Shown piece after piece: positions 753 through 16,346 of a stretch of DNA of 64,000 bases. The position numbers and the translations under genes are program-made. Each line of letters starts with the position of its first letter. The first letter of the stretch is position 1. The notes under the pieces were generated by a model. That model was not told the origin of the DNA. It made no database searches and saw only the letters and a list, made by a program, of their open reading frames with translations. Source of the DNA: Minisyncoccota bacterium (lineage in GTDB: Bacteria > Patescibacteriota > Minisyncoccia > Phycocordibacterales > UBA6065); contig DASZXC010000003.1 of NCBI GenBank assembly GCA_035546035.1, positions 479 through 64,478 on the forward strand. The letters are read 5' to 3'.

Positions 753-2165
753 TTGAACAAGAAGACCAAGATCGTCTGCACTATCGGACCGGCTACCGAA
801 TCCCAGCCGCAGCTCGAAAAGCTCCTCCGGGCGGGCATGAACGTCATGCGCCTCAACTTCTCGCACGGCGACTTCAGCGAGCATGGCAACCGCGTGAAGA
901 ATCTCAAGAAGGCGATAGAGGAGACCGGCATCCCTGCGGCGATCCTTCAGGACCTCGGCGGCCCGAAGATCCGTATCGGCACGTTCAAGACCGAGTCGGT
1001 CATGCTCAAGGAAGGCGCCAAGTTCACGCTCACGACCGACAAGGTCGAAGGCGACGAGGCGCGCGTATCGGTGAACTATCCTAATTTCGCGAAAGAGGTC
1101 AAGAAGGGTCATATCGTCTTCCTCCATGACGGCAGGAAGAAGCTCGAAGTCCTCGAGGTGAAGGGCAATAGCGTCGTCTGCAAGATCCTCGTCGGCGGCG
1201 AGATCAAGGGCAAGCGCGGCGTGAATCTCCCCGATTCCGACCTCACCATCTCGTCCCTCACTCCGAAGGACCTCGCCGACCTCGAATTCGGCATCAAGAA
1301 CAAGGTCGATTTCATGGCGCTCTCGTTCGTGCGCCGCGCGTCCGATATCACCGAACTCCGCGACATCCTCAAGGCCAAGAAATCCAAGGCCAAGATCATA
1401 GCCAAGATCGAGACTCCGCAGGCCCTCGCGTGCATAGACGAGATCATCGCGCTCGCTGACGGTATCATGGTCGCCCGCGGAGACCTTGCCATCGAGATCC
1501 CCGCAGAGAAAGTCCCTGCGGCCCAGAAGATGCTCATCAGGAAGTGCAACGAGGCGGGCAAGCCGGTCATCACCGCGACCCAGATGCTCGAATCGATGAT
1601 CAAGGCGCCGGTCCCTACGCGCGCAGAGGTCTCCGACGTCGCGAACGCCATTATAGACGGTACCGACGCTATCATGCTCTCCGAAGAGACGACGCTCGGC
1701 GACTATCCCGTACAGGCCGTCGAAGTCATGAATAAGGTCGCTCTCCAGGCGGAGGCGGGCATGGTCAAGAAGCAGCTCCTGGAGACCGTTCCCGGCGTCC
1801 TCTACGCTTCCGGCGAGTCGATCACGGCTTCGGCGGTGAAGCTCGCCGACAGGGTCGGCGCGAAGTTCCTGGTCTCGTTCACCGAGAGCGGCAAGAGCGC
1901 CCGATCCATGTCGCGCCATAAGCCCGACCAGCATATCGTCGTATTCACGCCGAACGAGCTCACGTTCCGCCAGTCCATATTGTCGTGGGCGACGATGCCG
2001 GTCCTCGTGAAGCGCACGACCGATTTCAACGAGGTCGCCAAGATGGTTCGCGACCATTTCCTGAAGTCCAAGCTCGCCAAGAAGGGAGACAAGGTCGTCA
2101 TCGCGTCCGCTCTGCCGTTCGGCGCGGGCACCGAGACGAACATGCTCCTCATAGAGACTTTGTAG
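753..2165 (+). CDS. pyk: Pyruvate kinase (TTG start)
   Basis: 470 aa: N-terminal KIVCTIGPA...MNVMRLNFSHG, MVARGDLGIEIP, and the PK C-terminal domain. Full-length and unambiguous. Confidence 0.95.
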   Translation: MNKKTKIVCTIGPATESQPQLEKLLRAGMNVMRLNFSHGDFSEHGNRVKNLKKAIEETGIPAAILQDLGGPKIRIGTFKTESVMLKEGAKFTLTTDKVEGDEARVSVNYPNFAKEVKKGHIVFLHDGRKKLEVLEVKGNSVVCKILVGGEIKGKRGVNLPDSDLTISSLTPKDLADLEFGIKNKVDFMALSFVRRASDITELRDILKAKKSKAKIIAKIETPQALACIDEIIALADGIMVARGDLAIEIPAEKVPAAQKMLIRKCNEAGKPVITATQMLESMIKAPVPTRAEVSDVANAIIDGTDAIMLSEETTLGDYPVQAVEVMNKVALQAEAGMVKKQLLETVPGVLYASGESITASAVKLADRVGAKFLVSFTESGKSARSMSRHKPDQHIVVFTPNELTFRQSILSWATMPVLVKRTTDFNEVAKMVRDHFLKSKLAKKGDKVVIASALPFGAGTETNMLLIETL

Positions 2166-2182: not shown

Positions 2183-2240
2183 AATAAAAAGACTCCGTAA
2201 CGTCCCGCCAGGCCCTGGGACGTTACGGAGTCTTTTTATT
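2183..2240. terminator. Bidirectional intrinsic terminator / palindromic element (16-bp perfect stem gactccgtaacgtccc..gggacgttacggagtc flanked by A-run and T-run)
   Basis: Perfect inverted repeat with flanking aaataaaaa / tttttattt, sitting between the convergent pyk (+) and PLP-enzyme (-) genes. It shares a 21-nt core with the element at 3374-3446. Confidence 0.8.
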
Positions 2241-3135
2241 TGCCTGTGACGATACAAACTACAGAACCTCTAAAATGAGCGCCTTTGTTTATGGCACGGA
2301 TGAGTCCCGCGAGGCCGAGCGCGCCGTTGGCGGTCGCGGCGATGCCCTCTTTTTTCAAAAGCGCTATGGCACGCGCGATATCGGCATTCGATACGATCCA
2401 GCCTGTGCCACCAGTTCCTTTAATCGCTTCGACGACCGCTCCTTTGCGGTTAACGGCCTTGTCTACGATCGCGTCGGCGAGAGATATCTCGGGCTCGCTT
2501 TCCTCGGCAGAGAATTCGCGGGCGAGAGGGGAGTTGCCGGATGTCTGGACGATATGGACCTGCGGCACCGGCCCGGCGCCGTCCTTATCGTCTTTTTGCC
2601 AGCGCTCGATGAAATGCTTTGCCAATGCTTCCGCCGTCGTGCCTGACGACGTTCCTATGAATACGGCCGACAGACCGGGCGTCGCATCCATTTCCATGGC
2701 GAGCTCGGTATATCCAACGAGGGCGGCGTCGTCGGTAGACTGGCGAAGGCTTTCCTTGCCCCCGCCCTGGATCAGGCGGAACAGGGCCTGGAGCGGGCGA
2801 GGGGTCTCTTCTATGGTGATAGCGGGATCTTTGATCTCGTCCATGAGGGCCTTTCGCTTGGCTGGATTCATCTTTTCCCCGACGAGGATCGAAAGCGTCA
2901 GGCCGTCGCCGTTTACATTGCGCTCCTGGATGTGGCGCACCGCGGCGAGCGCGGCATTGCCCGACGACGATATGGCGAAATCTTTTTTGCCTTCGGCGAT
3001 CTTCAGGTCTATCATCACTGGTATCGAGCGGCCCTTGTGCGAGCCGTACGGATGGAGGTCTTCGCGCTTGAAATAGAGCCTGTCGAGGCCCAGTTCTTTG
3101 GCTATCTCCGGAGCTTCTGTCTGTGGAGTCTTCAC
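2236..3135 (-). CDS. Fold-type II PLP-dependent enzyme (ACC deaminase/D-cysteine desulfhydrase-like or threonine-synthase-like)
   Basis: 299 aa with motif FKREDLHPYGSHKGR (KREDL plus a lysine in SHKGR resembling the KRDDL...GGNKxRK signature) and a Gly-rich TSSGTTAEA loop. Substrate not assignable. Confidence 0.55.
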   Translation of the reverse strand: MKTPQTEAPEIAKELGLDRLYFKREDLHPYGSHKGRSIPVMIDLKIAEGKKDFAISSSGNAALAAVRHIQERNVNGDGLTLSILVGEKMNPAKRKALMDEIKDPAITIEETPRPLQALFRLIQGGGKESLRQSTDDAALVGYTELAMEMDATPGLSAVFIGTSSGTTAEALAKHFIERWQKDDKDGAGPVPQVHIVQTSGNSPLAREFSAEESEPEISLADAIVDKAVNRKGAVVEAIKGTGGTGWIVSNADIARAIALLKKEGIAATANGALGLAGLIRAINKGAHFRGSVVCIVTGK

Positions 3136-3210: not shown

Positions 3211-3375
3211 ATGAAATGCGTCTGCCCTGAATGCAAGAACGATATCGATATGTCGCGGTATCCGCAGGTAGCCCAAAAGCACGTGATCGAGTGCGACAGA
3301 TGCGGAATAGTGCTCGAGGTCACGAATATTATGAACGGCGTCGTAGAGACCGAGATAGTAGACGAAGGCAAGTAA
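3211..3375 (+). CDS. Small zinc-ribbon protein with LysW/ArgW-like architecture (54 aa), absent from the ORF track
   Basis: ATG at 3211, translation MKCVCPECKNDIDMSRYPQVAQKHVIECDRCGIVLEVTNIMNGVVETEIVDEGK, stop TAA 3373-3375. The CPEC...CDRCG spacing and an acidic C-terminus resemble the amino-group carrier protein LysW, but the C-terminus is DEGK rather than EDWGE. High GC3 codons; promoter-like TATATAA lies upstream. Confidence 0.4.
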   Translation: MKCVCPECKNDIDMSRYPQVAQKHVIECDRCGIVLEVTNIMNGVVETEIVDEGK

Positions 3376-3446
3376 TAAGCACTAAAAACACCCCATAATG
3401 TCCCGCCAGGCCCTGGGACGTCTTAGGGTTTTTTTAGTGCTTATTA
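3374..3446. terminator. Bidirectional intrinsic terminator / palindromic element, second copy of the GTCCCGCCAGGCCCTGGGACG core
   Basis: Outer arms ataagcactaaaaa / tttttttagtgcttat. Inner core gtcccgccaggccctgggacg (3400-3420) is identical to 2202-2222. Lies between the convergent LysW-like ORF (+) and the Mur ligase (-). Confidence 0.7.
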
Positions 3447-4910
3447 TTTTCCTGCAAGGGCCTTTACCGTTTCCTCTATCATTCCACGGAATCCGTGCGA
3501 GCCGAGGAATGCTATGGCATCGCCTTCGCCCCTCGCGCGCGCGAGGAATTTCACGAGCTCCGCGTCGTCGTCTATATAATGGACGTCTTTGTGCGACTCT
3601 TTGACGAGAGCGGCGAGCTCTTCTCCTTCGAATGTCTTTTCAGGATCGGTCGGATCAGCCTTCAATTTAGTGAGGCGCGGGATGACCACGGTATCGGCAT
3701 CCCTGAACGCATCTTTATATGAGGGCTTGGACTGCTCGGTACGGTTGCCGGTATTCGGCTCGTACACGGCGACGATGAGGCCCGGATATATAGAACGGAT
3801 GATGGCGAGCGCTGATCTGGCTTTCTCCGGAGAGTGGGCGATGTCGTCTATGACGGCGACCTCGTGCTCGTAGCGCTTTTCGAGGCGGCGCTTCATGCCC
3901 CTGAACGTCGCTATGGCGTCGGTGATGTCGCCCGGAGCGATGCCGATCTCTCGCGCCATGGCGAAACAACCGGTGATATTCTCGGCATTGTATCCGCCGA
4001 GGAGGGGCGATTTGATACCGTACGCTTTGCCGTGATAGACGATGTCGAATGCAATGCCCTCGTGCGAGCCTTTGACGTTCTCATAGCGATAGTCGGCTTT
4101 CTCGTCCTTGCCATAGCTCACGTATTCGCGCTTCAAGCCGGCAAGGAGCTTCGGCACCGCTTCCGTATCGGCGCATGCGACGATCAGCCCGTTCTTTTTG
4201 CCGCCTTTGCCGTCGGCTTTCGGCGCGGGAACCGACGCGACGAGCGCTTTGAACGCGTCGAGGTAGCTTTTCTCCGTAGGGTAGACGTCGGCATGATCCC
4301 ATTTGACGGCGGTGAGCATGAGATGCGTCGGCTTGTAGTGGGCGAACTTCGGGCGCTTGTCCCATTTCGCCGTCGTATATTCGTCGCCTTCGATGACCGA
4401 CCATTCGCCCGCATCTATCGCTGCCGATGCCGAATTGTCTTGGGTGACGCCGCCGACCATGTATGAAGGCTTCATATCGGCATGTTTCAAGATATGGGAG
4501 AGAAGCGCTGACGACGTCGTCTTGCCGTAGGTGCCGGTAACGACGATCGAATGAGGCTTGATAATATGCTCGCCCGCCGCTTCAGGGAAAGACATGAACG
4601 GGATACCATGCTCTTTCACGTACAAGAGCTCTGGATTCTTGGTCGAAATGGCGTTGCCCACGATGACGAGATCAGGCGCTCCACCCCCGACCATTTTTTC
4701 AGGATGAAAACCAGGATAATAGGGAATGCCGAGATCAGTGAGATTGGTCGAAACGGGCGGGAAGAAGCCGGAATCCGAGCCGGTCACTTTATAGCCCTTC
4801 TGCCAGAGAGCCGTCGCGACGGCGCTCATAGCCACGCCGCATATGCCGATGAAATGGACTTTCTGGGTCTTTTGGGCGGCACCTTTCTTATTCGTGATGG
4901 TATTTTTCAT
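3444..4910 (-). CDS. murC: Mur ligase family: UDP-N-acetylmuramate--L-alanine ligase (MurC) or Mpl-type ligase
   Basis: 488 aa: N-terminal HFIGICGVAMSAVATAL...VTGSD (MurC/Mpl hallmark), P-loop VVTGTYGKTT, Mur ligase middle and C domains. MurC versus Mpl cannot be resolved by eye. Confidence 0.75.
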   Translation of the reverse strand: MKNTITNKKGAAQKTQKVHFIGICGVAMSAVATALWQKGYKVTGSDSGFFPPVSTNLTDLGIPYYPGFHPEKMVGGGAPDLVIVGNAISTKNPELLYVKEHGIPFMSFPEAAGEHIIKPHSIVVTGTYGKTTSSALLSHILKHADMKPSYMVGGVTQDNSASAAIDAGEWSVIEGDEYTTAKWDKRPKFAHYKPTHLMLTAVKWDHADVYPTEKSYLDAFKALVASVPAPKADGKGGKKNGLIVACADTEAVPKLLAGLKREYVSYGKDEKADYRYENVKGSHEGIAFDIVYHGKAYGIKSPLLGGYNAENITGCFAMAREIGIAPGDITDAIATFRGMKRRLEKRYEHEVAVIDDIAHSPEKARSALAIIRSIYPGLIVAVYEPNTGNRTEQSKPSYKDAFRDADTVVIPRLTKLKADPTDPEKTFEGEELAALVKESHKDVHYIDDDAELVKFLARARGEGDAIAFLGSHGFRGMIEETVKALAGK

Positions 4911-5310
4911 TCCGGAGTATCGTGAAAGCCCGGTAGAGCTGTTCTAGGAATATAGCACGCACGAGGTCGTGCGGGAACGTCATGGACGAGAGCGCGATCG
5001 ATCCGTCGGCGAGAGCACGGACTTCGTCCGAGAATCCGAATGGCCCGCCCACGACGAACACGGCGGATCTTATGCCCGCATTCAACTGCTTCTGGATGAA
5101 ATCGGCGAATTCGACCGATCGATATGCGCGGCCTTTTTCATCGAGCAGGAAAATGCGGTCGTATTTTTCGAGATTTTTCATGAGCTTATCGTCGGTCGTC
5201 TCGACGATATCGAATCCGCTGTAACGATCGATGCGCGACGAATAATCGGCGACGAGCGCCGCGACGTTCGGGTCTTGGGTCTTTCCTACGACAACGAGAG
5301 AGATCTTCAT
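4888..5310 (-). CDS. rlmH: 23S rRNA (pseudouridine1915-N3)-methyltransferase RlmH (SPOUT)
   Basis: 140 aa, MKISLVVVGK...FLLDEKG...SSMTFPH..YRA; typical YbeA/RlmH length and motifs. Confidence 0.8.
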   Translation of the reverse strand: MKISLVVVGKTQDPNVAALVADYSSRIDRYSGFDIVETTDDKLMKNLEKYDRIFLLDEKGRAYRSVEFADFIQKQLNAGIRSAVFVVGGPFGFSDEVRALADGSIALSSMTFPHDLVRAIFLEQLYRAFTILRNEKYHHE

Positions 5311-5311
5311 A

Positions 5312-5968
5312 TCATGGTTTAAGCAGTTCCTTGAGAGGCTCTATGTCCGTGCGCCATCTCTCGCCGTCGAACCATTCGCCGCCCTTGAACTGGAGCTTGT
5401 AGGTGTCGGTAGGGCGGGAGAGCGAGCCGAGATATACGTATCTCTTGTTGCATTCTTTGGCCTTCTGAAGGACCATGGTCATCATGCCGAGGCCGCGCGA
5501 CGGCTCGCGCGCGTCTTCGATGTAGAAAGGGAAGGCGTAGTGGAATATGTTCGCGCTGCGATATCCGATAACGAAGCCGATCTGCGAAGATCGGCGCGCG
5601 TCGCCGAATACGAGGAGCAGGTTGAAGTTGCTCTTGTCGGCGTCGGTGATGACCTCGCGCGCCTTGTTGGCGGTAAAGACGCTGTCGCCGAATTTCGCGT
5701 AGAAATCCTTGGCGAGCTTGCCGATCTGCCAGGAATAATCCTTGTAGGGCAGGGCCTCGGCCTCGAGGGCGAGATTTTCGGCTTTGCGGAGGATGCGCCG
5801 GTTCTCGCTCGAGAGTTCGAATCTGGAGAGATCGACGCGGAACGAGCGCGTCTGGTTCATGACGCCCTTGCCGACGCGCGTGAAGACATAGCCTTTATCG
5901 TACATCCGTTCGATGTTTTCGGGAGAAAGATCTGCTATGACCCGGCTGTCCCATGTGAGATATGACAT
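5312..5968 (-). CDS. Arginyl-tRNA--protein transferase / Bpt-like aminoacyl-tRNA-protein transferase family protein
   Basis: 218 aa: RSFRVDLSRFELSSENRRILRK (ATE_N-like signature) and RYVYLGS (ATE_C-like YLGY region). No Cys-rich N-terminal motif is present, so the assignment is tentative. Confidence 0.4.
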   Translation of the reverse strand: MSYLTWDSRVIADLSPENIERMYDKGYVFTRVGKGVMNQTRSFRVDLSRFELSSENRRILRKAENLALEAEALPYKDYSWQIGKLAKDFYAKFGDSVFTANKAREVITDADKSNFNLLLVFGDARRSSQIGFVIGYRSANIFHYAFPFYIEDAREPSRGLGMMTMVLQKAKECNKRYVYLGSLSRPTDTYKLQFKGGEWFDGERWRTDIEPLKELLKP

Positions 5969-5996
5969 ATGCGTGCGCGCGAGGCGCCCTATATTC

Positions 5997-7130
5997 CTAG
6001 TGAAGCCCTATCCAGACGCCGATGAGCACCATGCCGAGGTGCACGATCCACATGCGCATGATGACTTTTTCCTCGCTCCAGCCTTTCAATTCGAGGTGAT
6101 GATGCAAGGGCGCCATGCGGAATACGCGACGGCCGAATACGTGGCGACCGACGGATTGCACGAGTACGGTCGCAGCTTCGGCATAGAACATGAATGCGAT
6201 GAAGGGAAGTATGGCCATGCTGTTCACCGCCAATGCGTTGATGGCGAGCAATCCGCCGAGGCCGAGCGATCCGACGTCTCCCATCTGAAAGCGCGCAGGC
6301 TTTACGTTGAAATAAGTATAGGTGATGAGCGCTCCCACGGTTACCGCGTTCAGTATGGCGAGAGCGTCATAGCCCGCGATCCACGACAGGAATGCGAGCG
6401 CGCCGAATGTCGGGATGAGCATGCCTCCGGCCAAGCCGTCCATGCCGTCGGATACGTTCACGGCATTGGCGGTGAACATGACGACGAAGATGATGAGGGG
6501 AATAAGGAAGCCGTCGATCGAGACGAGCCCGTGAAAAGGGACGTATATGTCCCGCCACGCTTCGCCGAGCTTGTAATAGATCCACCAGACGGATACGGCG
6601 CCCGCGGCGAACTGGAGCAGGAGCTTTTCATGGACGAGGACGCCCGTACGCTGTTTGGATCCGAATATAGTCGTCGCGCGCTTGAAGACCGTCCAGGGCA
6701 GCGTGACGACGAGCCAGAGGCGGTAGAGGATGTTCTTGTGGACGCGTATGAGCGTCATCGTCTGCGACAGGCTCCTCTGGCGGCGGCCAGAGCCGAACGT
6801 ATTCAAAAGGTCGTCGAATGCGCCGAGAGCGGCGGACAAAAGCATGACGCCGACCGGTACCCACGTGTATCGGCGGTCCCAGTCAAAGAAATAGGCGAGC
6901 GCGGCGACCGTTACGATGACGAGGAGACCGCCCATGATCGGCGTATTCGCCTTTTCCGATCGGGATTCGAGGCCGAGCGTCTTGTCGCCTTCCGATTTGC
7001 GGACGATCCTCCCCCGGCGGAGGATCTTTATCAGAAACGGCGCCCATGCAAGGCTCGTCAGGCATGCTACGATGCCGAATCCGATGATGGTCGTAAGGCT
7101 ATGTATCTGAAGGGGGAGAAAGTCCGTCAT
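5997..7130 (-). CDS. mraY: Phospho-N-acetylmuramoyl-pentapeptide-transferase
   Basis: 377 aa polytopic membrane protein with NAVNVSDGMDGLAGG, MGDVGSLGLG and HHHLE motifs. The 494-aa antisense ORF 5913-7397 is rejected. Confidence 0.9.
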   Translation of the reverse strand: MTDFLPLQIHSLTTIIGFGIVACLTSLAWAPFLIKILRRGRIVRKSEGDKTLGLESRSEKANTPIMGGLLVIVTVAALAYFFDWDRRYTWVPVGVMLLSAALGAFDDLLNTFGSGRRQRSLSQTMTLIRVHKNILYRLWLVVTLPWTVFKRATTIFGSKQRTGVLVHEKLLLQFAAGAVSVWWIYYKLGEAWRDIYVPFHGLVSIDGFLIPLIIFVVMFTANAVNVSDGMDGLAGGMLIPTFGALAFLSWIAGYDALAILNAVTVGALITYTYFNVKPARFQMGDVGSLGLGGLLAINALAVNSMAILPFIAFMFYAEAATVLVQSVGRHVFGRRVFRMAPLHHHLELKGWSEEKVIMRMWIVHLGMVLIGVWIGLH

Positions 7131-7170
7131 GAGGCCCAGTATAGGCCAAAAGGCGACTTAAATAAAGGTT

Positions 7171-7986
7171 TTAAGCCAGGAATACGAGCCGGCGTACCGA
7201 GACTTCTTTTGCCCCGCGGGCGCTTTCAAGCGTATAGTTTTCCGGACCCGTCGCTCCTTTCTCTTTCCAGACCCCTTTGCCGCGGGCGATGTCACCCATG
7301 GTCTCGCCGGCAGGGACGAATATGTCGCCTTCGCGTACGCCGTGATCGGTCGTGCCGTCGGAAGGCCATGCGTATGAGTGCGCATATGAAAGCCTGATAC
7401 CGTTCGACGATCGCTCGACTCCCGTGATGACGAGCATGTGGTTATAGAGTCCGTCCTTACCCGTGCCCATGAACGTGATTATATCGCCCGGGCGCGCGTC
7501 GCTGGCCGCGATCTCGGCGCTATTCCTTTCGTTTGCGAACGTCGCTACGCCCATGTTCTCGGCAGGACGGAGACGCGCTATGAGCGAGCCTATGAAGCCC
7601 GAGCGGTTCGATCGCACGAACGCCGAGATGTTTCTGCCGCGCTTTTCCTGGGCGACGGCATTCAATACATGGTATGCGAAACCGGAGCAGTCGACGCCGA
7701 GGTCATGGGCGACGAGGAATTCCTTTAGTTTATCCGTCGAAAGCGTCGCCACGTTCACGCGCGAGTGCTTCGCGTCTATGTCCGCCTCTTCGGCGATCTC
7801 TTCAGGCGAGCCTTTGCCTTTGAGGACGCGCAACTGGCTGCGCGTCTTATGGCGCTTATTATTGAAATATGGGCACGAAGGCTTGGTCCCCAAAGGAAGG
7901 GCGAGGTATGCGTCGATGACCGCTCGAGCCCTGCCTTCGAGCTTCTCGGTCTCCGGTTTCGTTATCTCTACGGCGTCTTGATGCAT
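7171..7986 (-). CDS. NlpC/P60-family papain-like cysteine peptidase/amidase (no signal peptide seen)
   Basis: 271 aa. GVDCSGFAYHV (catalytic Cys) and GDIITF...LYNHMLVI (catalytic His) match the NlpC/P60 pattern. Its start overlaps the upstream ATP-grasp stop by 19 nt, suggesting translational coupling. Confidence 0.5.
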   Translation of the reverse strand: MHQDAVEITKPETEKLEGRARAVIDAYLALPLGTKPSCPYFNNKRHKTRSQLRVLKGKGSPEEIAEEADIDAKHSRVNVATLSTDKLKEFLVAHDLGVDCSGFAYHVLNAVAQEKRGRNISAFVRSNRSGFIGSLIARLRPAENMGVATFANERNSAEIAASDARPGDIITFMGTGKDGLYNHMLVITGVERSSNGIRLSYAHSYAWPSDGTTDHGVREGDIFVPAGETMGDIARGKGVWKEKGATGPENYTLESARGAKEVSVRRLVFLA

Positions 7987-9203
7987 GATGCGATGAATCG
8001 TCCCAAATCGTTCAGCTGATCGTGGGCCTTCATTATACCCGTCTCTGACTGAATACGGAAAAGCTCTTTATTATGATCCGTGTTCTCGTATGCCATGACG
8101 GCGAGGCCCTGTCCGCGAAGCGCGTCGATATCGACCGATGCGGGAATCTCCGTGACGCGCTTAACGATCTGGGCGCCTGATATGAGAGGCAGCCTTTCAG
8201 GAAAAGGCATATCGAGAAGCGCTGCGATGTGGGCTTCGAATATCGTCGGGGCGTCTGCCCCGGTTTTTTTCTCGAGCGCGGATTCGAATACGGCCGATGC
8301 GGGCTGCCGGGCGTTTATCTCCAAAAGCGATACCTTGCCCGTAGCGGCGTCATATATAACGTCTATGCCGAAGAGGCCTTTCCAACCCTCGGATTCGAGC
8401 CGCGCCCCGATCTGTTTTGCCATGCCCGCGGTGCTTTTGAGCAGGCCTCTGAAAGAAGCGTCGGCCGCCAGGCTCCAGTCATTGCCTATGGTCGAGAAGG
8501 GAAGGTCGGTGAAAGGCTCGAGGCCCGTGATCTGGTAGCTCGGATTTCCCATGAGCGTGCCTTTTCCGACGACGACGTTCATCGTAAACACGGGTCCGTC
8601 CACGAAATCGGCGACGCGGCATTCGCGCCGGGGAAAATCGGCGCGGATCTTCTCCAGGTCTTTGTCCGACTCGATCACGTATGTGCCTTGGCCCGTATGC
8701 GAGTGATTGAACTGGAGGACGGATTTTTTGCCCGCGTACGCAACGTCCTTACAGAGCATGATCCGATGCGGAGGCAGGAGACCGGCGATGTCATCGAGCC
8801 ATCGGACCTGCGACACCTTTTCCTCGACTTCTTTTGCGAGCTCCGCGCTCGGGTTCAAAAGATTCCAGCCTTTCTCTTTCGCCAACCGCTCTATGCGCGC
8901 CGTGTTCTGGAATACCAGAACGTCCGCCCCGCGTTCGGCGATCGTTTTCTGTGTTTCAGGAAGAGAAAGGAGGTCGAACGTATCCAGAAGCTCGCCGGCA
9001 TCCGCGCCTTTTGCTAGCCGCACGTTCTCGGAGAATCTCTTCCGGACCTCGCGGCCGTACGGCGTATCGTTCGAAACGATGAAATAATTTCCGGCAGGCT
9101 CCATACCGAGCGCGCGCTCTATGTCGCGGGTCACGTAGACAAGCGGCTTTTTAAGGCTAATATGCATTAATGATAGTATACTTATCGCCGAAACTATGGC
9201 CAC
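7968..9203 (-). CDS. ATP-grasp family ligase (pre-ATP-grasp N-terminal domain plus ATP-grasp), unknown substrate
   Basis: 411 aa: SVLQFNHSHTGQGTYVIES, ECRVADFVDGPVFTMNVV, GIDVIYDAATGKVSLLEINARQP. The annotated start overlaps the divergent rsmI start by 8 nt, so the true start may be a downstream Met (MHISLKK). Confidence 0.6.
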   Translation of the reverse strand: MAIVSAISILSLMHISLKKPLVYVTRDIERALGMEPAGNYFIVSNDTPYGREVRKRFSENVRLAKGADAGELLDTFDLLSLPETQKTIAERGADVLVFQNTARIERLAKEKGWNLLNPSAELAKEVEEKVSQVRWLDDIAGLLPPHRIMLCKDVAYAGKKSVLQFNHSHTGQGTYVIESDKDLEKIRADFPRRECRVADFVDGPVFTMNVVVGKGTLMGNPSYQITGLEPFTDLPFSTIGNDWSLAADASFRGLLKSTAGMAKQIGARLESEGWKGLFGIDVIYDAATGKVSLLEINARQPASAVFESALEKKTGADAPTIFEAHIAALLDMPFPERLPLISGAQIVKRVTEIPASVDIDALRGQGLAVMAYENTDHNKELFRIQSETGIMKAHDQLNDLGRFIASCIKTP

Positions 9204-10071: not shown

Positions 10072-11313
10072 GTGTCAGGGAAGAACACCAAACAGAGCGT
10101 TCGAGCGTACAGGATAGGCGTCGGCCTATTCCTGCTTTTTATGTTCCTCGCCATTTTCCTCTATGCGGCCGGGCCGCTCTTCGAGCAGACGACCTATGAG
10201 AATAAGCCTGTCGAGGTCGCGACGACCACCGTACCCGTTCCGGTCGGCCGCCAGGCTACCCATGTGCCGACTCCGGAGCCGGTCAAAGGCATATATATGA
10301 CGTCGTGCGTCGCCGCGACGCCTTCGCTCCGCGTGAAGCTCGCCGACCTCATAGACGAGACCGAGCTCAACTCCGTCGTTATAGACATCAAGTCGTTCGA
10401 CGGGCATATCTCGTTCATGCCGGAGAATCCCGCGCTCAAAGACGCCGTCGGCGGATGCTATGTCAAAGACATGCAGGATTTCATCGACACGCTCCATGCG
10501 AAGGATATATATGTGATCGGCCGCGTCGCATCGTTCCAAGACCAGTACATGGTGGCGAAGCGTCCCGACCTCGCTGTCAAAAAAGAGAGCGCGACGTCTA
10601 CTGTCTGGCGCGACTATAAAGGCATCGCGTGGATAGACGCGTCGTCGGTCGAGCACTGGAAGTATCTCGTAGACATAGCGAAAGACGCCCATGCGATCGG
10701 TTTCGACGAGATAAACTTCGACTACATACGATTCCCGGCCGACGGCAATATGAAAGACATCTGGTATCCGCTGTCGGGGAAGAAAGACAAGAGCCAGGTC
10801 GTCAGGGGATTCTACGAATACCTCCATCACGAGCTCTCGCCGCTCGGCATCACCATATCGGGCGACCTCTTCGGCATGACGACGACCAATACCGACGACC
10901 TGAACATCGGGCAAATACTCGAATACGGATTGGCGAACTTCGATTACGTGATGCCGATGGTCTATCCGTCGCATTACCCGGACGGATTCTACGGGATCCC
11001 TGACCCGAACAAGGACGTCTACAAGGTCGTGAAGATCTCCATGGACAAGGCCGTCGCTCGCGCCGCCGCGACGACGACCCCGATCCTCACGGATACCCGT
11101 ATCGGTACCTCTACGCCCGCGGTCTATGCGAAGCCCGTATGGGACAGCAAGAAGCTCCGCCCGTGGCTTCAGGATAATAACTATCCGGTCACGTACACAG
11201 CTGAGATGGTGAGGGCGCAGATACAGGCCGACTACGATTCGAGCGCGACGAGCTGGTCGCTCTGGAATGCGGGGAACAAATATACGAGGGCGGCGCTCGA
11301 GCCGAAGCCGTGA
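10072..11313 (+). CDS. Membrane-anchored putative glycoside-hydrolase-like TIM-barrel protein (GHL/DUF4015-like)
   Basis: 413 aa with an N-terminal TM anchor. Motifs GIYMTSC, VVIDIKSFDG, GFDEINFDYIRFP, MPMVYPSHY recall the glycoside-hydrolase-like families. Assignment is from memory of the family patterns only. The antisense 458-aa ORF is rejected. Confidence 0.45.
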   Translation: MSGKNTKQSVRAYRIGVGLFLLFMFLAIFLYAAGPLFEQTTYENKPVEVATTTVPVPVGRQATHVPTPEPVKGIYMTSCVAATPSLRVKLADLIDETELNSVVIDIKSFDGHISFMPENPALKDAVGGCYVKDMQDFIDTLHAKDIYVIGRVASFQDQYMVAKRPDLAVKKESATSTVWRDYKGIAWIDASSVEHWKYLVDIAKDAHAIGFDEINFDYIRFPADGNMKDIWYPLSGKKDKSQVVRGFYEYLHHELSPLGITISGDLFGMTTTNTDDLNIGQILEYGLANFDYVMPMVYPSHYPDGFYGIPDPNKDVYKVVKISMDKAVARAAATTTPILTDTRIGTSTPAVYAKPVWDSKKLRPWLQDNNYPVTYTAEMVRAQIQADYDSSATSWSLWNAGNKYTRAALEPKP

Positions 11314-11386
11314 TATTGACTTTAGATTAAAATCATTATAGGATAGCAAGGAACTTTCCCAAGCGTTTCCTCGTTCCTTATATCTG

Positions 11387-11671
11387 ATGAATATTAAAAC
11401 CATAGCTCTATCCGTACTGGTGATCCCTGCCGCTGTCCTTGCCGGGCTTTGCATAAAATTCGGCGTGCTGCTCGTGCTGGGCAGTTTCCTCGGAATCCTC
11501 ATTGCTCTGTCTATCGTCGTGGTCCTCTTCGCTCTCTATCAGATGAGGCCTCGATGCGAGAACGACAGCTGCAAGTCGAGGCTCATCTTCAGCGGCACCT
11601 GCTCCCGATGCGGCAAGCCGCAGACGAGCTATCAGGCGGTCTCGAAGGTCCGCCGGTGCCGCGCGATCTGA
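11387..11671 (+). CDS. Small membrane protein with C-terminal Cys4 zinc ribbon (hypothetical)
   Basis: 94 aa: two hydrophobic helices, then CENDSCKS...CSRCGKP. Followed by an intrinsic terminator at 11696-11728. Confidence 0.4.
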   Translation: MNIKTIALSVLVIPAAVLAGLCIKFGVLLVLGSFLGILIALSIVVVLFALYQMRPRCENDSCKSRLIFSGTCSRCGKPQTSYQAVSKVRRCRAI

Positions 11672-11695
11672 TCGCCGGCGTTCGCCGTCAGACGA

Positions 11696-11728
11696 GCCGC
11701 TCTCATACCGAGAGCGGCTTTTCCTTTT
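11696..11728 (+). terminator. Rho-independent terminator (gccgctctc-atacc-gagagcggc-TTTTCCTTTT)
   Basis: Hairpin plus T-run downstream of the small membrane protein gene. Confidence 0.6.
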
Positions 11729-12106
11729 CGCCTTCCCGCGCTTTCGCGGTCTGGACAAAATCCGGCGATTCGATATAGTTTCGAAGGTCTTGTTCGCCGG
11801 CAACAAGCCCCTCGCTGAGGGGTTACGGTTTCCTCTCAGGAGCTTCGCCGGTATTTTACAAAATACATAACGATGCACCCACACGCCAGACGTACCATTG
11901 TCCTCGGTCCCAGCCTTCCCAAAGTCGATCCGGAAAAACCGGTTCCCGAACGCTCCTCGCGGAGCGTGCCGGAACCCGTGATTCCCGTCGGCTGCGGATT
12001 GGCGAGAGCCCGGGCCATCAAGGAAGATGCGGCCCGTCGCGGCCAGTCCGCGCCGGTAGGCCTCTCCGCGATGCCTGCTTGAACGTCGTGAAGTGCAAAA
12101 GCCTGC

Positions 12107-12140
12107 GCGGCCGCCGATGCATATCGGCGGCCGCTTTTTT
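12107..12140 (+). terminator. Strong rho-independent terminator (12-bp stem gcggccgccgat/atcggcggccgc, loop gcat, TTTTTT) ending 9 nt before the ATG of the VirD4-like gene
   Basis: Perfect 12-bp GC-rich stem plus six T. Its placement immediately upstream of a start codon is attenuator-like. Confidence 0.7.
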
Positions 12141-12148
12141 GTGACATA

Positions 12149-13993
12149 ATGATGGAAATGACCAGCGACGACAAAGTCACATACTTCGCCGAGACCGATG
12201 CCCGGAACAAGCGCGTCAAATTCGGGATCAAGGCAAAAGACCGCACCCGCCACGTCTATATCATCGGCAAGACGGGCATGGGCAAATCCACTCTCCTCGA
12301 GAATATGGCGGTGCAAGACATTCAGGGCGGGGAAGGCTGCTGCTTCATAGACCCTCACGGCAAGACCGCCGAGCTTCTCCTCAATTACGTTCCCGAAAAT
12401 CGCCTCAAGGACGTGCTCTATTTCGCGCCGTTCGACGTCGAGCACCCGATCGCGTTCAACGTCATGGAGGACGTCGGCTACGACAAGCGCCATCTCGTCG
12501 TATCCGGCCTCATGTCCACATTCAAAAAAATATGGGCCGATGCGTGGAGCGCCCGCATGGAATATATCCTCTCGAACACGCTTCTCGCGCTCCTCGAATA
12601 TCCAGGAGCGACGCTCTTGGGAGTGAACAAGATGCTCTCTGACAAGGACTATCGCAAAAAGGTCGTCGACAACATCAAAGATCCGGCGGTGAAGTCGTTC
12701 TGGGTGGACGAGTTCGCCAAATATACCGACAGGTTCGCCGCCGAAGCGACTCCGGCCATTCAGAACAAGATCGGCCAGTTCACGAATAACCCTCTCATCA
12801 GGAATATCATCGGCCAGCCGAAATCGTCGTTCGACCTTCGCAAGATGATGGACGACAGGAAGATTCTCATCGTGAACCTCTCGAAAGGCCGCGTGGGCGA
12901 ATCGAACGCCAATCTCCTCGGCGCTATGCTCATCACCAAGATATATCTCGCCGCGATGTCGCGCGCCGACGTCTCTGACAAGATAATGAAGACCCTGCCG
13001 AACTTCTACCTCTATGTGGACGAATTCCAGTCCTTCGCGAACGAGTCTTTCGCCGATATCCTCTCCGAGGCGCGAAAATACAAGCTGAACCTGACCATGG
13101 CGCATCAGTACATCGAGCAGATGTCCGAAGAAGTGCGCGCGGCGGTGTTCGGCAACGTCGGTACCATGATCGTGTTCCGGGTGGGCTCGTACGACGCAGA
13201 GGTCTTGGAGAAGGAATTCGCCCCGCAATTCACGGCTGAAGACATCGTGAACCTCGGCTTCGCGCAGATATATCTGCGGCTTATGATCGACGGGATAGGT
13301 TCGCAGCCGTTTTCGGCGACCACGCTGCCGCCGATACCCGAACCCGCCGTCACGTTCAAGGAGCAAGTCGTCCAGGGCTCGCGCGCCCAATTCACCCAAG
13401 TTCGTCCGGTCGTCGAAGAGCTCGTCCGCATGCAGACCTTGGGCGCGACGCCCGACAGGCCTCTCGCGACCATGAAGGCAGAGCCGCGCGACAGGACCAG
13501 CACGGCGGAAAGGGCTGACAGGCCGATGCCGCCGGCGCCTTCACCTATGCCGCCGCGCGAGCCGCGCAGGGAAGAGAGGCGTGACGATCGCCGCGAAGAT
13601 CGCAGAGACGACAGGCGCCTGCCGCAGGAGAATAATCGTCGCCACGAGACGCCGCCGATGGACGCGAGCGACGGATTTCATGGTTTCGACGCTATCAAGG
13701 CCATGGTCACGCCGCGTCCGCTTCAGAATAGCCAGAGCCAAGATCAGAAGCGCCCGAACGATCAGAGACCCGAAAAAAAGGGCGTGACCGAAGAGTCGCG
13801 AAACGACCTGCGTCAGGCACTCGCTTCTATAGCGAAGCCTCCGGCTGCTCCCAAAGAAGCGCCGAAGCAGGAGGCGAAGAAGGAAGCGGCTCCTCCGGCG
13901 CCTCCTGTCGCGCCGCGACCGCCTGAACTCAAGCATTCCGGACCGGCGAACGAGGTTCCGGAAGACGTCCTTAACAAACTCCTTGATATGTAA
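12149..13993 (+). CDS. P-loop ATPase of the VirD4/TraD/TraG type IV coupling-protein-like (DUF87/AAA-like) family, with an Arg/Asp/Glu/Pro-rich disordered C-terminal tail
   Basis: 614 aa: Walker A IIGKTGMGKST, Walker B YLYVDEFQSF, TraG-D_C-like LNLTMAHQYIEQ. No N-terminal TM segment. C-terminal ~170 aa are low-complexity (REPRREERRDDRREDRRDDRR...PPAPPVAPRPP). Confidence 0.55.
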   Translation: MMEMTSDDKVTYFAETDARNKRVKFGIKAKDRTRHVYIIGKTGMGKSTLLENMAVQDIQGGEGCCFIDPHGKTAELLLNYVPENRLKDVLYFAPFDVEHPIAFNVMEDVGYDKRHLVVSGLMSTFKKIWADAWSARMEYILSNTLLALLEYPGATLLGVNKMLSDKDYRKKVVDNIKDPAVKSFWVDEFAKYTDRFAAEATPAIQNKIGQFTNNPLIRNIIGQPKSSFDLRKMMDDRKILIVNLSKGRVGESNANLLGAMLITKIYLAAMSRADVSDKIMKTLPNFYLYVDEFQSFANESFADILSEARKYKLNLTMAHQYIEQMSEEVRAAVFGNVGTMIVFRVGSYDAEVLEKEFAPQFTAEDIVNLGFAQIYLRLMIDGIGSQPFSATTLPPIPEPAVTFKEQVVQGSRAQFTQVRPVVEELVRMQTLGATPDRPLATMKAEPRDRTSTAERADRPMPPAPSPMPPREPRREERRDDRREDRRDDRRLPQENNRRHETPPMDASDGFHGFDAIKAMVTPRPLQNSQSQDQKRPNDQRPEKKGVTEESRNDLRQALASIAKPPAAPKEAPKQEAKKEAAPPAPPVAPRPPELKHSGPANEVPEDVLNKLLDM

Positions 13994-14056
13994 CGCCTTC
14001 GCCTCCAAGAGGATTATAATGAGGCGCTACAATTCATATATCCCGTAAAAACCGCC

Positions 14057-15220
14057 ATGTCAGCAAAGAAAGCCCTTATATTCTCCCTCGCATACTATCC
14101 TCGCCTCGTCGGCGGGGCTGAAGTCGCCGTGAGGGAGATGACCGACCGTATCGATCCGGCGGACATCGAATTCCACATGGTCACCATGAAGGCCGGATCT
14201 CTGCCCGTGCAGGAGAAGATCGGCAACGTGACCGTCTACCGCGTCGGCCTTCCGGTGTCGTCGGGGCCGCTCTTCGCGCTCAATAAATACCTCTATCTCT
14301 TTCTTGCGCCGCTCAAGGCGTCGTGTCTCCATCGCTCGATGAAATTCGATTTCACCTGGAGCATCATGGCCTATGTCGCCGGCTTTCCCGGCCTTTTCTT
14401 CAAGCTCTTCCATATGGACGTGCCGTTCGTGCTCACGCTCCAGGAAGGCGATCCGATCGATTATATGCTCCGCAAGACGCGGTTCGTGCGGGGGACGTTC
14501 CGCAAGATATTCGCGCATGCCGACCGCATCCAGGCCATCTCGAAATACCTGGCCGATTTCGCGCGCGATATGGGTGCGACCGCAAAGCCCGTCGTCGTCC
14601 CGAACGGCGTAGATGTGGAGAAGTTCTCGAAATTCATCGTGGGCGAAGAGCTCCAGGCGATAAAGCGCGAGATCGGCAAAATGCCGGACGACGTATTCAT
14701 CGTCACAGCCGGACGCCTTGTGGAAAAGAATGCGGTCGGCGATATTATCGGCTCTCTCGTATACCTTCCGGCGAACGTGAAATTCCTCAATATCGGTTCG
14801 GGTCATCTGGAGCAAGGACTCAGACAACAGGCGAAACGGCTTGGCGTGGATAACCGCGTCATATTCAAAGGCTTCGTTCCGCATGAATCATTGCCCGGAT
14901 ACCTTCAGGCTTCCGACATATTCATCCGCCCGTCTCTCTCCGAAGGATTCGGCAATTCATTCGTCGAAGCGATGGTCGCAGGCATACCCGTCATCGCTAC
15001 GAGGACGGGCGGCATCGTCGACTTCCTCCGCGACAAAGAAACGGGGCTTTTCTGCGAAACGAATTCGCCGCAGGACATCGCCCGCAAGGTCCAGATATAT
15101 ATGCAGGACAAGAGCCTCCGCACCGAGATCGTGGATAATGCCATGCACATGGTCGTAGACCGCTATGACTGGAGGACGGTCGCGAACGACATGAAGGAGA
15201 AGGTTTTCGACCTGGTATGA
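14057..15220 (+). CDS. Glycosyltransferase family 4 (GT-B, retaining)
   Basis: 387 aa; C-terminal EGFGNSFVEAMVAGIPVIATRTGGIVDF, the canonical GT4/GT1 E-x7-E region. Confidence 0.8.
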   Translation: MSAKKALIFSLAYYPRLVGGAEVAVREMTDRIDPADIEFHMVTMKAGSLPVQEKIGNVTVYRVGLPVSSGPLFALNKYLYLFLAPLKASCLHRSMKFDFTWSIMAYVAGFPGLFFKLFHMDVPFVLTLQEGDPIDYMLRKTRFVRGTFRKIFAHADRIQAISKYLADFARDMGATAKPVVVPNGVDVEKFSKFIVGEELQAIKREIGKMPDDVFIVTAGRLVEKNAVGDIIGSLVYLPANVKFLNIGSGHLEQGLRQQAKRLGVDNRVIFKGFVPHESLPGYLQASDIFIRPSLSEGFGNSFVEAMVAGIPVIATRTGGIVDFLRDKETGLFCETNSPQDIARKVQIYMQDKSLRTEIVDNAMHMVVDRYDWRTVANDMKEKVFDLV

Positions 15221-15227
15221 TGAAGCC

Positions 15228-16340
15228 ATGAAGATTCTCGTAGCAACCGGCATATTCCCGCCGCAGATCGGCGGCCCTGCGACCTATTCCAAGCTCATAT
15301 ATGACGAGCTTCCGAAGCGCGGCATCGAAGTCGAGATCGCGAGCTTCGGCGACTACATCCACAAGCCGAGGTTCGTCAGGCATTTTATGTATTTCATGGA
15401 ATTGCTCCGCAAGGCGCCGGAAGCCGACATCATATATGCCATGGATCCCGTCTCCGTGGGGCTTCCGGCGCTCTTCGCTTCCCAGATACGCGGCAAGGAG
15501 CTCGTTCTCAAGGTCGTCGGGGACTATGCCTGGGAGCAGGGGACGCAGAGGTTCGGCGTGACCGATACGCTCGACCATTTCGCGCGGAACCATGGCGCGC
15601 ATGCCTGGCAGGTCAGGCTTCTCAAATGGATAGAAGCCTATGTCGCCGAAGGCGCGAAGCGCGTCATCACGCCTTCGAAATATCTGAAGTCGATACTCGT
15701 GGATTGGGGCGTGGACTCGCGCAATGTATCTGTCATATATAACGGCTTTCATATAGAGCCGGTCAAGGAGACTCCAAGCGTTCTGAAGAAGCGCATGAAA
15801 TGGACGGGCAAGACGATCGTCACCGTCGGGCGCCTCGTCCCATGGAAGGGGATCAAGGAAGTGATCGAGGCCATGCCCGACGTCATCGCCGCGCATCCCG
15901 ATGCCAAGCTCCTGGTTATCGGCGACGGGCCGGACGGGGAGAGCCTGAAGAAGCGCGCGACGGAGCTCGCCGTCGCCGACAGGGTCGCATTTACAGGCCG
16001 CTTGGATCAGAGAACGATGTTCGAATACGTGAAAGCATCCGACCTGTTCGTCCTGAATACGGCGTATGAAGGATTCTCGCACCAGATACTCGAAACCATG
16101 GCTTTAGGTACCCCGGTTATAACCACGGCTGTGGGCGGAAACGTCGAGATAATAAGGAATGCCGAGAACGGTATTTTGATCGCTCCTGGGGCCTTGCAGA
16201 GCCTTAAAGAGGCCATCATAGGTCTTTTGGGCAATATAAAGGGCGCTGACGGCCTTGCCCGAAAGGCTAAGAAAGACGTCTCCGGGTTCACCGACGAGAT
16301 CATGCTCGACAGGCTTGCGGACGAGCTAAAGAAGATATAG
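15228..16340 (+). CDS. Glycosyltransferase family 4
   Basis: 370 aa; EGFSHQILETMALGTPVITTAVGGNVEII. Confidence 0.8.
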   Translation: MKILVATGIFPPQIGGPATYSKLIYDELPKRGIEVEIASFGDYIHKPRFVRHFMYFMELLRKAPEADIIYAMDPVSVGLPALFASQIRGKELVLKVVGDYAWEQGTQRFGVTDTLDHFARNHGAHAWQVRLLKWIEAYVAEGAKRVITPSKYLKSILVDWGVDSRNVSVIYNGFHIEPVKETPSVLKKRMKWTGKTIVTVGRLVPWKGIKEVIEAMPDVIAAHPDAKLLVIGDGPDGESLKKRATELAVADRVAFTGRLDQRTMFEYVKASDLFVLNTAYEGFSHQILETMALGTPVITTAVGGNVEIIRNAENGILIAPGALQSLKEAIIGLLGNIKGADGLARKAKKDVSGFTDEIMLDRLADELKKI

Positions 16341-16346
16341 CGAAGT

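Follow-up and report, generated by a model that had tools for sequence, protein, structure and literature searches.

Locus organization

The 64,000-nucleotide stretch of DNA analyzed here (positions 479 to 64,478 of contig DASZXC010000003.1, assembly GCA_035546035.1), which we call the window, comes from the metagenome-assembled genome of a Minisyncoccota bacterium, a Candidatus Paceibacterota member of the Candidate Phyla Radiation (CPR; Patescibacteria), and encodes, next to each other on the reverse strand, an ATP-grasp amide ligase and a cysteine amidase of the NlpC/P60-CHAP superfamily (hereafter P60; Table 1). A first-pass annotation, made from the letters alone, had described the two genes as overlapping by 19 nt on the same strand, and this is borne out by the TAG of the ATP-grasp gene at 7970..7968 and the ATG of the P60 gene at 7986..7984. 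It had also extended the ligase gene to position 9203. An open reading frame (ORF) running back to a GTG codon there does exist (7968..9203, 411 aa), but the supported start is ATG 9167, which gives 399 aa. Judging from sequence, ATG 9167 is most likely the true start because every homologue in the alignment begins M-x-x-x-KKP(I/L)VYVTRDIERALG and because the deposited protein (P0121) is itself 399 aa long, matching the ORF at 100% identity and coverage; the other ORF of the pair likewise has a deposited counterpart, P0001, at 100% identity. Further, the divergent rsmI gene starts at 9196, 28 bp from ATG 9167, and a start at GTG 9203 would overlap its beginning.

The pair heads a reverse-strand run in the order ATP-grasp, P60, mraY, a gene for a 218-aa protein, rlmH, and a murC/mpl-like gene, extending from 9167 to 3444 with gaps of at most 40 nt. 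A promoter scan of the region gave no signal above that of shuffled sequences. Four further long ORFs, at 5913..7397 (+), 8229..9017 (+), 10126..11502 (-), and 11408..13399 (-), were judged to be spurious and put down to high GC content. They lie antisense to mraY, the ATP-grasp gene, the DUF4015 gene, and the coupling ATPase gene, have no family matches, and show atypical codon-position GC. Because the genes that they overlap have family support, they are, in a genome of 56% GC, probably shadow ORFs.

Table 1. Positions of the gene pair and of neighboring features in the window
Feature	Position	Strand	Remarks
ATP-grasp amide ligase gene	7968..9167	-	399 aa; ORF open to GTG 9203
NlpC/P60-CHAP superfamily cysteine amidase gene	7171..7986	-	271 aa; ATG start
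Overlap of ATP-grasp stop and P60 start	7968..7986	-	19 nt
mraY (phospho-MurNAc-pentapeptide transferase)	5997..7130	-	TIGR00445 E 2.7e-49; 40 nt downstream of P60
218-aa protein	5312..5968	-	Weak Bpt/ATE_C similarity, NF002341 E 5e-6
rlmH (SPOUT rRNA methyltransferase)	4888..5310	-	PF02590 E 1.5e-42
murC/mpl-like Mur ligase	3444..4910	-	Last gene of the co-directional run
LysW-like zinc-ribbon protein	3211..3375	+	54 aa; Pfam Zn_ribbon_LysW 30.9 bits, gathering threshold 27
Fold-type II pyridoxal phosphate (PLP) enzyme (PALP)	2236..3135	-	Distantly threonine-synthase/SbnA-like
DUF4015 putative glycosyl hydrolase	10141..11313	+	
VirD4/TraD-like coupling ATPase	12149..13993	+	
Three GT4 glycosyltransferases	14057..17450	+	

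The ATP-grasp ligase and its relatives

Residue conservation and family-level profile counts were taken over 44 sequences of the window family. The window ATP-grasp protein itself matches no Pfam model; Pfam ATP-grasp_3 is matched by 36 of the 44 family members. An AlphaFold2 model of the protein (predicted local distance difference test score, pLDDT, 93.8) gave 519 PDB matches at E<=1e-3 in a Foldseek search, the best at E 5.5e-17, with TM-scores of 0.63-0.68 to PurK, PurT, biotin carboxylase, and PurD, and the predicted structure has the three-domain fold that marks a member of the ATP-grasp superfamily. Sixty-two alignment columns are invariant, including D269, E283, and N285 (GIDxxxD...LLEINARQPAS), which we take to be the equivalents of D257, E270, and N272 of D-Ala-D-Ala ligase (Ddl), and the lid loop HTGxGT (H157-T158-G159-x-G161-T162) is invariant as well. 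PDB searches by sequence, with both proteins of the pair and both profiles, returned chance-level matches only.

Had this protein been a conventional Ddl or a carboxylase subunit, the first-pass annotation would by its own terms have been contradicted; profile scores far under the respective cut-offs speak against both. A role as carboxylase subunit was rejected on a score of 71.6 bits against a cut-off of 684 for the "biotin carboxylase" model NF005096 and on the lack of any match to the Pfam biotin carboxylase domains (Biotin_carb_N and CPSase_L_D2); the annotated neighbors of the cluster include no biotin carrier or carboxyltransferase gene. A conventional Ddl was rejected because the Ddl models are nearly silent across the family: neither TIGR01205 nor Dala_Dala_lig_C matches the window protein, and among its relatives they are matched, respectively, weakly by seven of 44 (best E 8.8e-5) and by one. 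No canonical Ddl was found in the window or in the 80 related loci described below when an E. coli DdlB sequence served as query. GSP_synth (PF03738) has no match at E<=0.01 in the window protein or any of the 44 relatives, and rimK_fam is matched by a single family member, weakly.

The nearest named family is NF005096/PRK06524, matched by all 44 members (best E 3e-22). The second-best NCBIfam relative, matched by 42 of the 44 (best E 2.8e-12), is NF053643, an ATP-grasp family of archaeal pseudomurein clusters whose gene adjoins an MraY-like gene (PMC11915815). A tblastn search of plasmids recovered 14 distant ATP-grasp homologues annotated as "biotin carboxylase" (24-29% identity), and the same type of search with the P60 protein found no match. 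Five of these homologues, from Rhizobium, Chondrinema, Roseobacter, and Shinella plasmids (loci L087-L091), score 677-766 bits against NF005096, and so are members or fall just under its cut-off; hhalign relates the PRK06524 plasmid proteins to the window family with 98.2% probability. In four of the five loci the gene directly after PRK06524 encodes a C45 autoproteolytic cysteine acyltransferase/hydrolase, and in Rhizobium the two genes overlap by 4 nt. Because the PRK06524 relatives pair with C45, the whole ligase clade seems to work as an ATP-grasp enzyme plus a cysteine amidohydrolase, with two unrelated hydrolase folds, and the name "biotin carboxylase" for PRK06524 is probably wrong.

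The P60 hydrolase

The window P60 protein scores under the Pfam thresholds for both NLPC_P60 (18.4 against 23 bits) and CHAP (17.3 against 26 bits). These models are matched by 28 (best E 1.5e-7) and 27 (best E 1.5e-6) of 44 P60 relatives, and precomputed Pfam annotation assigns PF00877 to proteins P0100 and P0118 and PF05257 (CHAP) to four others. The NlpC/P60 identity proposed at first pass therefore stands at the superfamily level, on catalytic residues and fold, but not at the level of the Pfam cut-offs: the protein belongs, as a divergent member, to the NlpC/P60-CHAP papain-fold superfamily. Cys100, within G(V/I)DCSGF, and His183 are invariant in the 44 sequences, and His203 is at least 90% conserved, with Asn at this position in one displayed sequence. 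The catalytic motif aligns to that of LytE. In the AlphaFold2 model (pLDDT 92.8), C100 opens helix 100-116, H183 lies on strand 181-193, and H203 lies on strand 196-205. Foldseek against the PDB returned weak papain-fold matches only (IdeS, the E. coli Gsp amidase, and a C. difficile NlpC/P60 protein); that to the Gsp amidase, at E 0.05, is not significant, yet it is among the top matches.

Around the catalytic core, the protein carries a conserved, basic N-terminal domain of ~95 aa (PYFNNRR...GKG.P.EI.EE) and a conserved C-terminal extension of ~65 aa, and it is basic overall (isoelectric point, pI, 8.8). We assessed secretion by simple hydropathy rather than SignalP. By this measure there is no signal peptide, as the first-pass annotation had noted, since hydropathy over 12-residue stretches of the first 45 aa peaks at no more than 1.62 in 44 of 44 members, and there is no transmembrane segment (maximum 19-residue hydropathy 1.02). 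With neither feature in any P60 member, the hydrolase is, by this test, cytoplasmic.

Pairing and fusion across related genomes

When one genome was scanned for each GTDB species (185,579 representatives), at least 244 loci with the ATP-grasp gene were found, and the locus counts below refer to the best 80 of these, at 43-73% identity. The P60 gene immediately adjoins the ATP-grasp gene in 78 of the 80, the exceptions being a locus cut by a contig end (L018) and one with ~800 bp of apparently non-coding DNA downstream (L054). In the latter, the interval 3605..4414, 3' of the ATP-grasp gene, lacks a P60 gene and, in every frame, any long ORF, and is possibly an RNA gene or a misassembly. The pair is co-directional in 62 of the 78 loci (25 overlapping, 32 with gaps of 1-57 nt, four with larger gaps, and one in-frame fusion); in the other 16 the P60 gene is inverted, so that the two genes converge, and still abuts its partner. 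At most co-directional loci the junction falls between -32 and +57 nt, with a mode of -13, and overlaps are typically 13 or 19 nt. Across species-level genomes, then, the pairing is conserved, to the point of being obligate, while the junction is variable. Translational coupling, which the first-pass annotation had proposed, fits the window with its 19-nt overlap and is typical of the window's clade, but it is not obligatory, because P60 is inverted in 16 of 78 loci and many others have short gaps.

In many relatives the connection is closer still. Used as a profile in an exhaustive search, the P60 alignment returned 624 cluster representatives, 196 of them at E<=1e-30. Among the best 150 P60 representatives, 27 are fusions with the ATP-grasp half at the N terminus and the P60 half at the C terminus; at 612-779 aa they have both halves complete, and all 27 retain the (D/E)CS(G/A) catalytic Cys motif. 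One fusion (P0330) lies in rsmI/mraY/murC synteny identical to that of the window, and another, from Magasanikbacteria (P0287), recurs on 7-9 contigs. Remote P60 homologues (38-43% identity) likewise adjoin an ATP-grasp gene. The module is confined to bacteria of the Paceibacteria type within the CPR.

It could be argued that the two genes are functionally independent and that their overlap reflects genome compaction: CPR genomes are compact, overlaps in them are common, and P60 lies on the opposite strand in 16 of 78 loci. However, adjacency survives that inversion, co-occurrence in 78 of 80 loci holds down to 43% identity, and the 27 independent fusion clusters come with orthologous synteny. 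We give independence next to no probability and regard it as excluded because of the natural fusions. The pair is one functional unit, physically coupled and in many relatives covalently fused, and the tight or overlapping junctions, together with the fusions, support the co-expression and functional coupling envisaged at first pass. The ATP-grasp/P60 pair is a real, conserved, and uncharacterized bifunctional module.

Genomic neighborhood

The first-pass annotation had placed the pair beside mraY and murC. Both belong to the same operon, and this context is conserved: mraY adjoins the pair in 68 of 80 loci, and the 218-aa protein, murC, and the PLP enzyme are conserved in 59, 54, and 49 of 80, respectively. 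The operon's rlmH gene, present in 11 of 80 loci only, is a passenger. The Mur ligase, the only one found in the window, scores 271.7 bits against TIGR01082 murC (cut-off 335) and 236.7 bits against mpl (cut-off 389), and murD follows past the PLP gene in 23 loci. The 218-aa protein weakly resembles aminoacyl-tRNA-protein transferases with a Fem-like GNAT fold, a relative in one locus (L083) weakly matching Pfam ATE_C, and on this basis it could act on a wall precursor as a Fem-like transferase that depends on aminoacyl-tRNA. The PLP enzyme could supply an unusual wall amino acid. In a second type of synteny, murB is the divergent upstream neighbor, and in Magasanikbacteria mraY is not adjacent to the module and only murB remains so. 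The module thus retains a peptidoglycan-precursor neighbor across different arrangements.

Between the murC and PLP genes, on the opposite strand, lies a gene for a LysW-like zinc-ribbon protein, convergent with murC and divergent from the PLP gene, with which it shares a 75-bp divergent region. A hairpin with a T-run follows 3' of it at 3408..3431. The protein is acidic (pI 4.7), carries the motifs CPEC...CxxCG and a C-terminal E(I/V)(I/V)DEGK, and falls under the cut-offs of the NCBIfam LysW models (22.5 against 75 bits and 19.4 against 53 bits). Seventeen columns of its alignment are invariant, among them those of the last four residues (D51-K54). A search of the window and 84 loci, 85 sequences in all, found the gene in 48, and the ...DEGK tail is invariant in 29 aligned sequences and present in 47 of the 48 gene-holding loci, the 48th having an assembly gap. 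In metagenomes, a scan confirmed 351 stretches that encode relatives of this protein; 29 of 32 informative metagenome loci anchored on it also hold the P60 gene, which adjoins an ATP-grasp gene in all of these except one cut at a contig end. Two metagenome loci (L164 and L170) have the LysW-like, PLP, murC, and mraY genes and neither ATP-grasp nor P60 within 5 kb beyond mraY; in these the pair may lie elsewhere, as in Magasanikbacteria, or be absent. Overall, the LysW-like gene follows murC and PALP in its distribution, not the ATP-grasp/P60 pair. Neither this gene nor the Bpt/Fem-like gene nor the natural fusions figured in the first-pass annotation.

Other features of the surroundings are recorded here for completeness. 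A pyruvate kinase gene at 753..2165 (+) converges with the PLP gene, and a perfect 20-bp-stem hairpin with a T-run between the two (2188..2235) is probably a bidirectional terminator. Upstream of the pair, a forward-strand block (10141..17450), comprising the DUF4015, coupling ATPase, and glycosyltransferase genes, keeps its order in many related genomes. PADLOC anti-phage defense models gave no match for the ATP-grasp protein, the P60 protein, one fusion protein, or the neighbors.

Proposed function and alternatives

The interpretation that we favor, tentatively and with somewhat less than even confidence, is that the module is a coupled cytoplasmic amide synthetase/amidase whose substrate belongs to soluble peptidoglycan-precursor peptide chemistry. 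The ATP-grasp half would convert a carboxylate to an acyl-phosphate and then join it to an amine. The P60 half, through a putative Cys100-His183-His203 triad, would form a thioester acyl-enzyme and hydrolyze or transfer an amide of the gamma-glutamyl or isopeptide type. Most probably both halves would work on one conjugate or on intermediates that follow one another, and the UDP-MurNAc stem peptide would thereby be modified or trimmed in a way specific to the lineage. We infer both the ligase/amidase chemistry on a common substrate and the link to peptidoglycan; among substrates, a peptidoglycan precursor appears most likely because of the conserved neighbors murB, mraY, the Bpt/Fem-like transferase gene, murC, and murD.

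Several observations weigh against this interpretation. The argument for a peptidoglycan-precursor substrate comes from gene context, and because much of the nearby synteny is housekeeping (rsmI, rlmH, pyruvate kinase, and RadC), the neighborhood is a weak functional argument. Peptides are not the substrates of the structural neighbors PurK, PurT, biotin carboxylase, and PurD, which work on small carboxylates and nucleotide-bound amines. If ligase and amidase acted against each other, the result would be a futile cycle unless the pair were regulated. Nor is the module a universal step in wall synthesis, having been found in only a few (at least 244) of the 185,579 species representatives. Further, the neighbors in the PRK06524 loci include ornithine-decarboxylase-type, agmatinase, and C-N hydrolase genes, as well as ABC transporter genes, and so point to polyamines rather than the cell wall.

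Strict one-to-one pairing and frequent fusion are typical of synthetase/glutaminase couples, and the pair might instead be an amidotransferase, in which P60 as a glutaminase (a gamma-glutamyl thioester forming as NH3 leaves) would feed ammonia to a carboxylate-amidating ATP-grasp enzyme. Its targets could be, for example, the D-iso-Glu alpha-carboxyl or the diaminopimelate epsilon-carboxyl of the precursor, making it an analogue of MurT/GatD or CarB/CarA. CarB is an ATP-grasp enzyme partnered with a Cys-His glutaminase, NlpC/P60 enzymes specialize in gamma-glutamyl amides, and the neighbors are peptidoglycan precursor genes. However, we know of no NlpC/P60 glutaminase, and glutamine hydrolysis would need neither the N-terminal domain nor the C-terminal extension of P60; we consider an amidotransferase unlikely, if worth keeping in view. 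Muropeptide salvage, which we hold to be rather doubtful, has the two halves act in sequence, and this accounts for fusion better than antagonism does. Here P60 would cut imported host stem peptides at the gamma-D-Glu-diamino acid bond, like the cytoplasmic YkfC, the ATP-grasp enzyme would re-ligate the fragment, and the murC/mpl-like ligase would attach it to UDP-MurNAc. CPR bacteria are auxotrophic episymbionts, P60 keeps the DCSGF motif canonical for gamma-D-Glu endopeptidases, and the operon Mur ligase scores almost as well as an Mpl as it does as a MurC, under both cut-offs. Yet murD nearby in 23 loci means that the normal stepwise pathway seems present, the cluster holds no peptide transporter, and the ATP-grasp protein resembles known L-amino-acid/dipeptide ligases at the superfamily level only. 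More remote, and very improbable in our estimation, is an ATP-dependent epimerase in which an acyl-phosphate would pass to a Cys thioester and then be epimerized, an idea taken by analogy from MurL/MurD2 (PMC8788868).

Two other proposals look beyond the stem peptide itself. The pair's ligase is the only ATP-grasp enzyme in the cluster, and the pair might load and unload the LysW-like protein. An amino acid could be joined to Glu52 of the ...VDEGK tail, by analogy with LysX/LysK, or the C-terminal Lys could be cycled, as in the tubulin tyrosine ligase/vasohibin couple or on a "pearlin"-like scaffold peptide, and the PLP enzyme would modify the residue tethered to the carrier. The globular domain of the candidate carrier scores above the Pfam threshold and its tail is invariant, the carrier is acidic where P60 is basic, its gene shares the divergent region with the PLP gene, and the pair is found in 29 of the 32 informative loci. 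In addition, P60 enzymes acting on peptidoglycan cleave the same type of bond as LysK, namely gamma-Glu-N-alpha-amino-acid. On the other side, the carrier gene tracks murC and PALP and is absent near the pair in Magasanikbacteria-type loci, in L164 and L170 the carrier cluster has no such pair within 5 kb of it, the ATP-grasp protein is not of the LysX/RimK type, the tail is unlike EDWGE, and the cluster has no LysZ/Y/J-type enzymes. We find such a cycle quite unlikely, and equally so the larger proposal that the pair, the LysW-like protein, and the divergent PLP enzyme form a previously unknown CPR carrier-protein pathway yielding a non-proteinogenic peptidoglycan building block. Improbable, too, and near the bottom of the range that we would entertain, is polyamine or small-amine conjugate metabolism, with the pair a true functional analogue of the glutathionylspermidine synthetase/amidase (GspSA) and its wall neighbors mere conserved synteny. 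The linkage of PRK06524 to C45 and the polyamine-type genes in four or five of the five plasmid loci, the hhalign match to that family, and the place of the E. coli Gsp amidase among the top P60 fold matches speak for it. However, PRK06524 is only distantly related (24-29% identity), the match to the Gsp amidase lacks significance, loci with annotated neighbors have no polyamine genes near the CPR module, and murB/mraY adjacency persists over two synteny types.

CPR bacteria (Patescibacteria) make up a large share of bacterial diversity, are mostly uncultured, and retain peptidoglycan synthesis although most of their other biosynthesis is missing. A lineage-specific, often fused enzyme encoded between murB and mraY is therefore a cloneable candidate for an unknown wall step, be it modification, editing, or salvage. 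If the clade-wide ligase/amidohydrolase logic is true, the "biotin carboxylase" label in thousands of records is wrong, and these proteins would belong to a broader ligase/amidase enzyme class, in which the suggested cysteine amidohydrolase partners are P60 for CPR bacteria and C45 for Proteobacteria and Bacteroidota.

Comparison with known systems

We found no description of an ATP-grasp/P60 pair in the literature, and several characterized or named systems resemble it in part. The PRK06524/C45 pairs combine the nearest named ATP-grasp family with a partner that is likewise a cysteine-nucleophile amidohydrolase; however, C45 has the N-terminal nucleophile (Ntn) fold whereas P60 is papain-like, and the window ligase lies under the family cut-off. 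The archaeal NF053643 protein ("Ddl_archaea", OG0001014; Methanobacteriales/Methanopyrales) shares the setting of a wall-precursor cluster beside an MraY-like gene, but the window protein scores 16 bits against a cut-off of 500. To our knowledge, no P60 partner has been reported for it.

The LysW/LysX/LysK system has in common with the cluster a small acidic zinc-ribbon protein with a conserved tail near an ATP-grasp ligase and an amide hydrolase. It differs in most particulars: the C-terminal motif of LysW is EDWGE rather than ...VDEGK, LysX is of the RimK type whereas the ligase here is not, LysK is an M20 metallopeptidase whereas the hydrolase here is a cysteine P60 enzyme, and the LysW-like gene here is not adjacent to the pair. 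No M20, kinase, reductase, or aminotransferase genes (LysZ/Y/J-type) were found in the annotated cluster loci. MurT/GatD, the lipid II isoglutaminyl synthase, is another ATP-dependent carboxylate activator coupled to a Cys-His amidohydrolase for wall-precursor modification, but the analogy would be one of function, as MurT has a Mur-ligase fold and GatD is a class-I glutaminase, and the predicted folds of the pair include neither.

The closest architectural analogue is GspSA, represented by the E. coli enzyme and the trypanothione synthetase-amidase, whose logic the first-pass annotation had seen mirrored in this pair. Both combine in one polypeptide or unit an ATP-dependent amide synthetase, here a predicted one, with a cysteine amidase of the CHAP/NlpC-P60 superfamily, and both would work in the cytoplasm. 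The P60 relatives match the CHAP and NLPC_P60 models about equally often. The domain order is reversed, with the ligase N-terminal here, and the ligase is a PurK/biotin carboxylase-like, PRK06524-related ATP-grasp enzyme in place of a GSP_synth homologue, set among cell-wall genes and not thiol or polyamine genes. The comparison with GspSA therefore holds as an analogy of architecture, not as homology.

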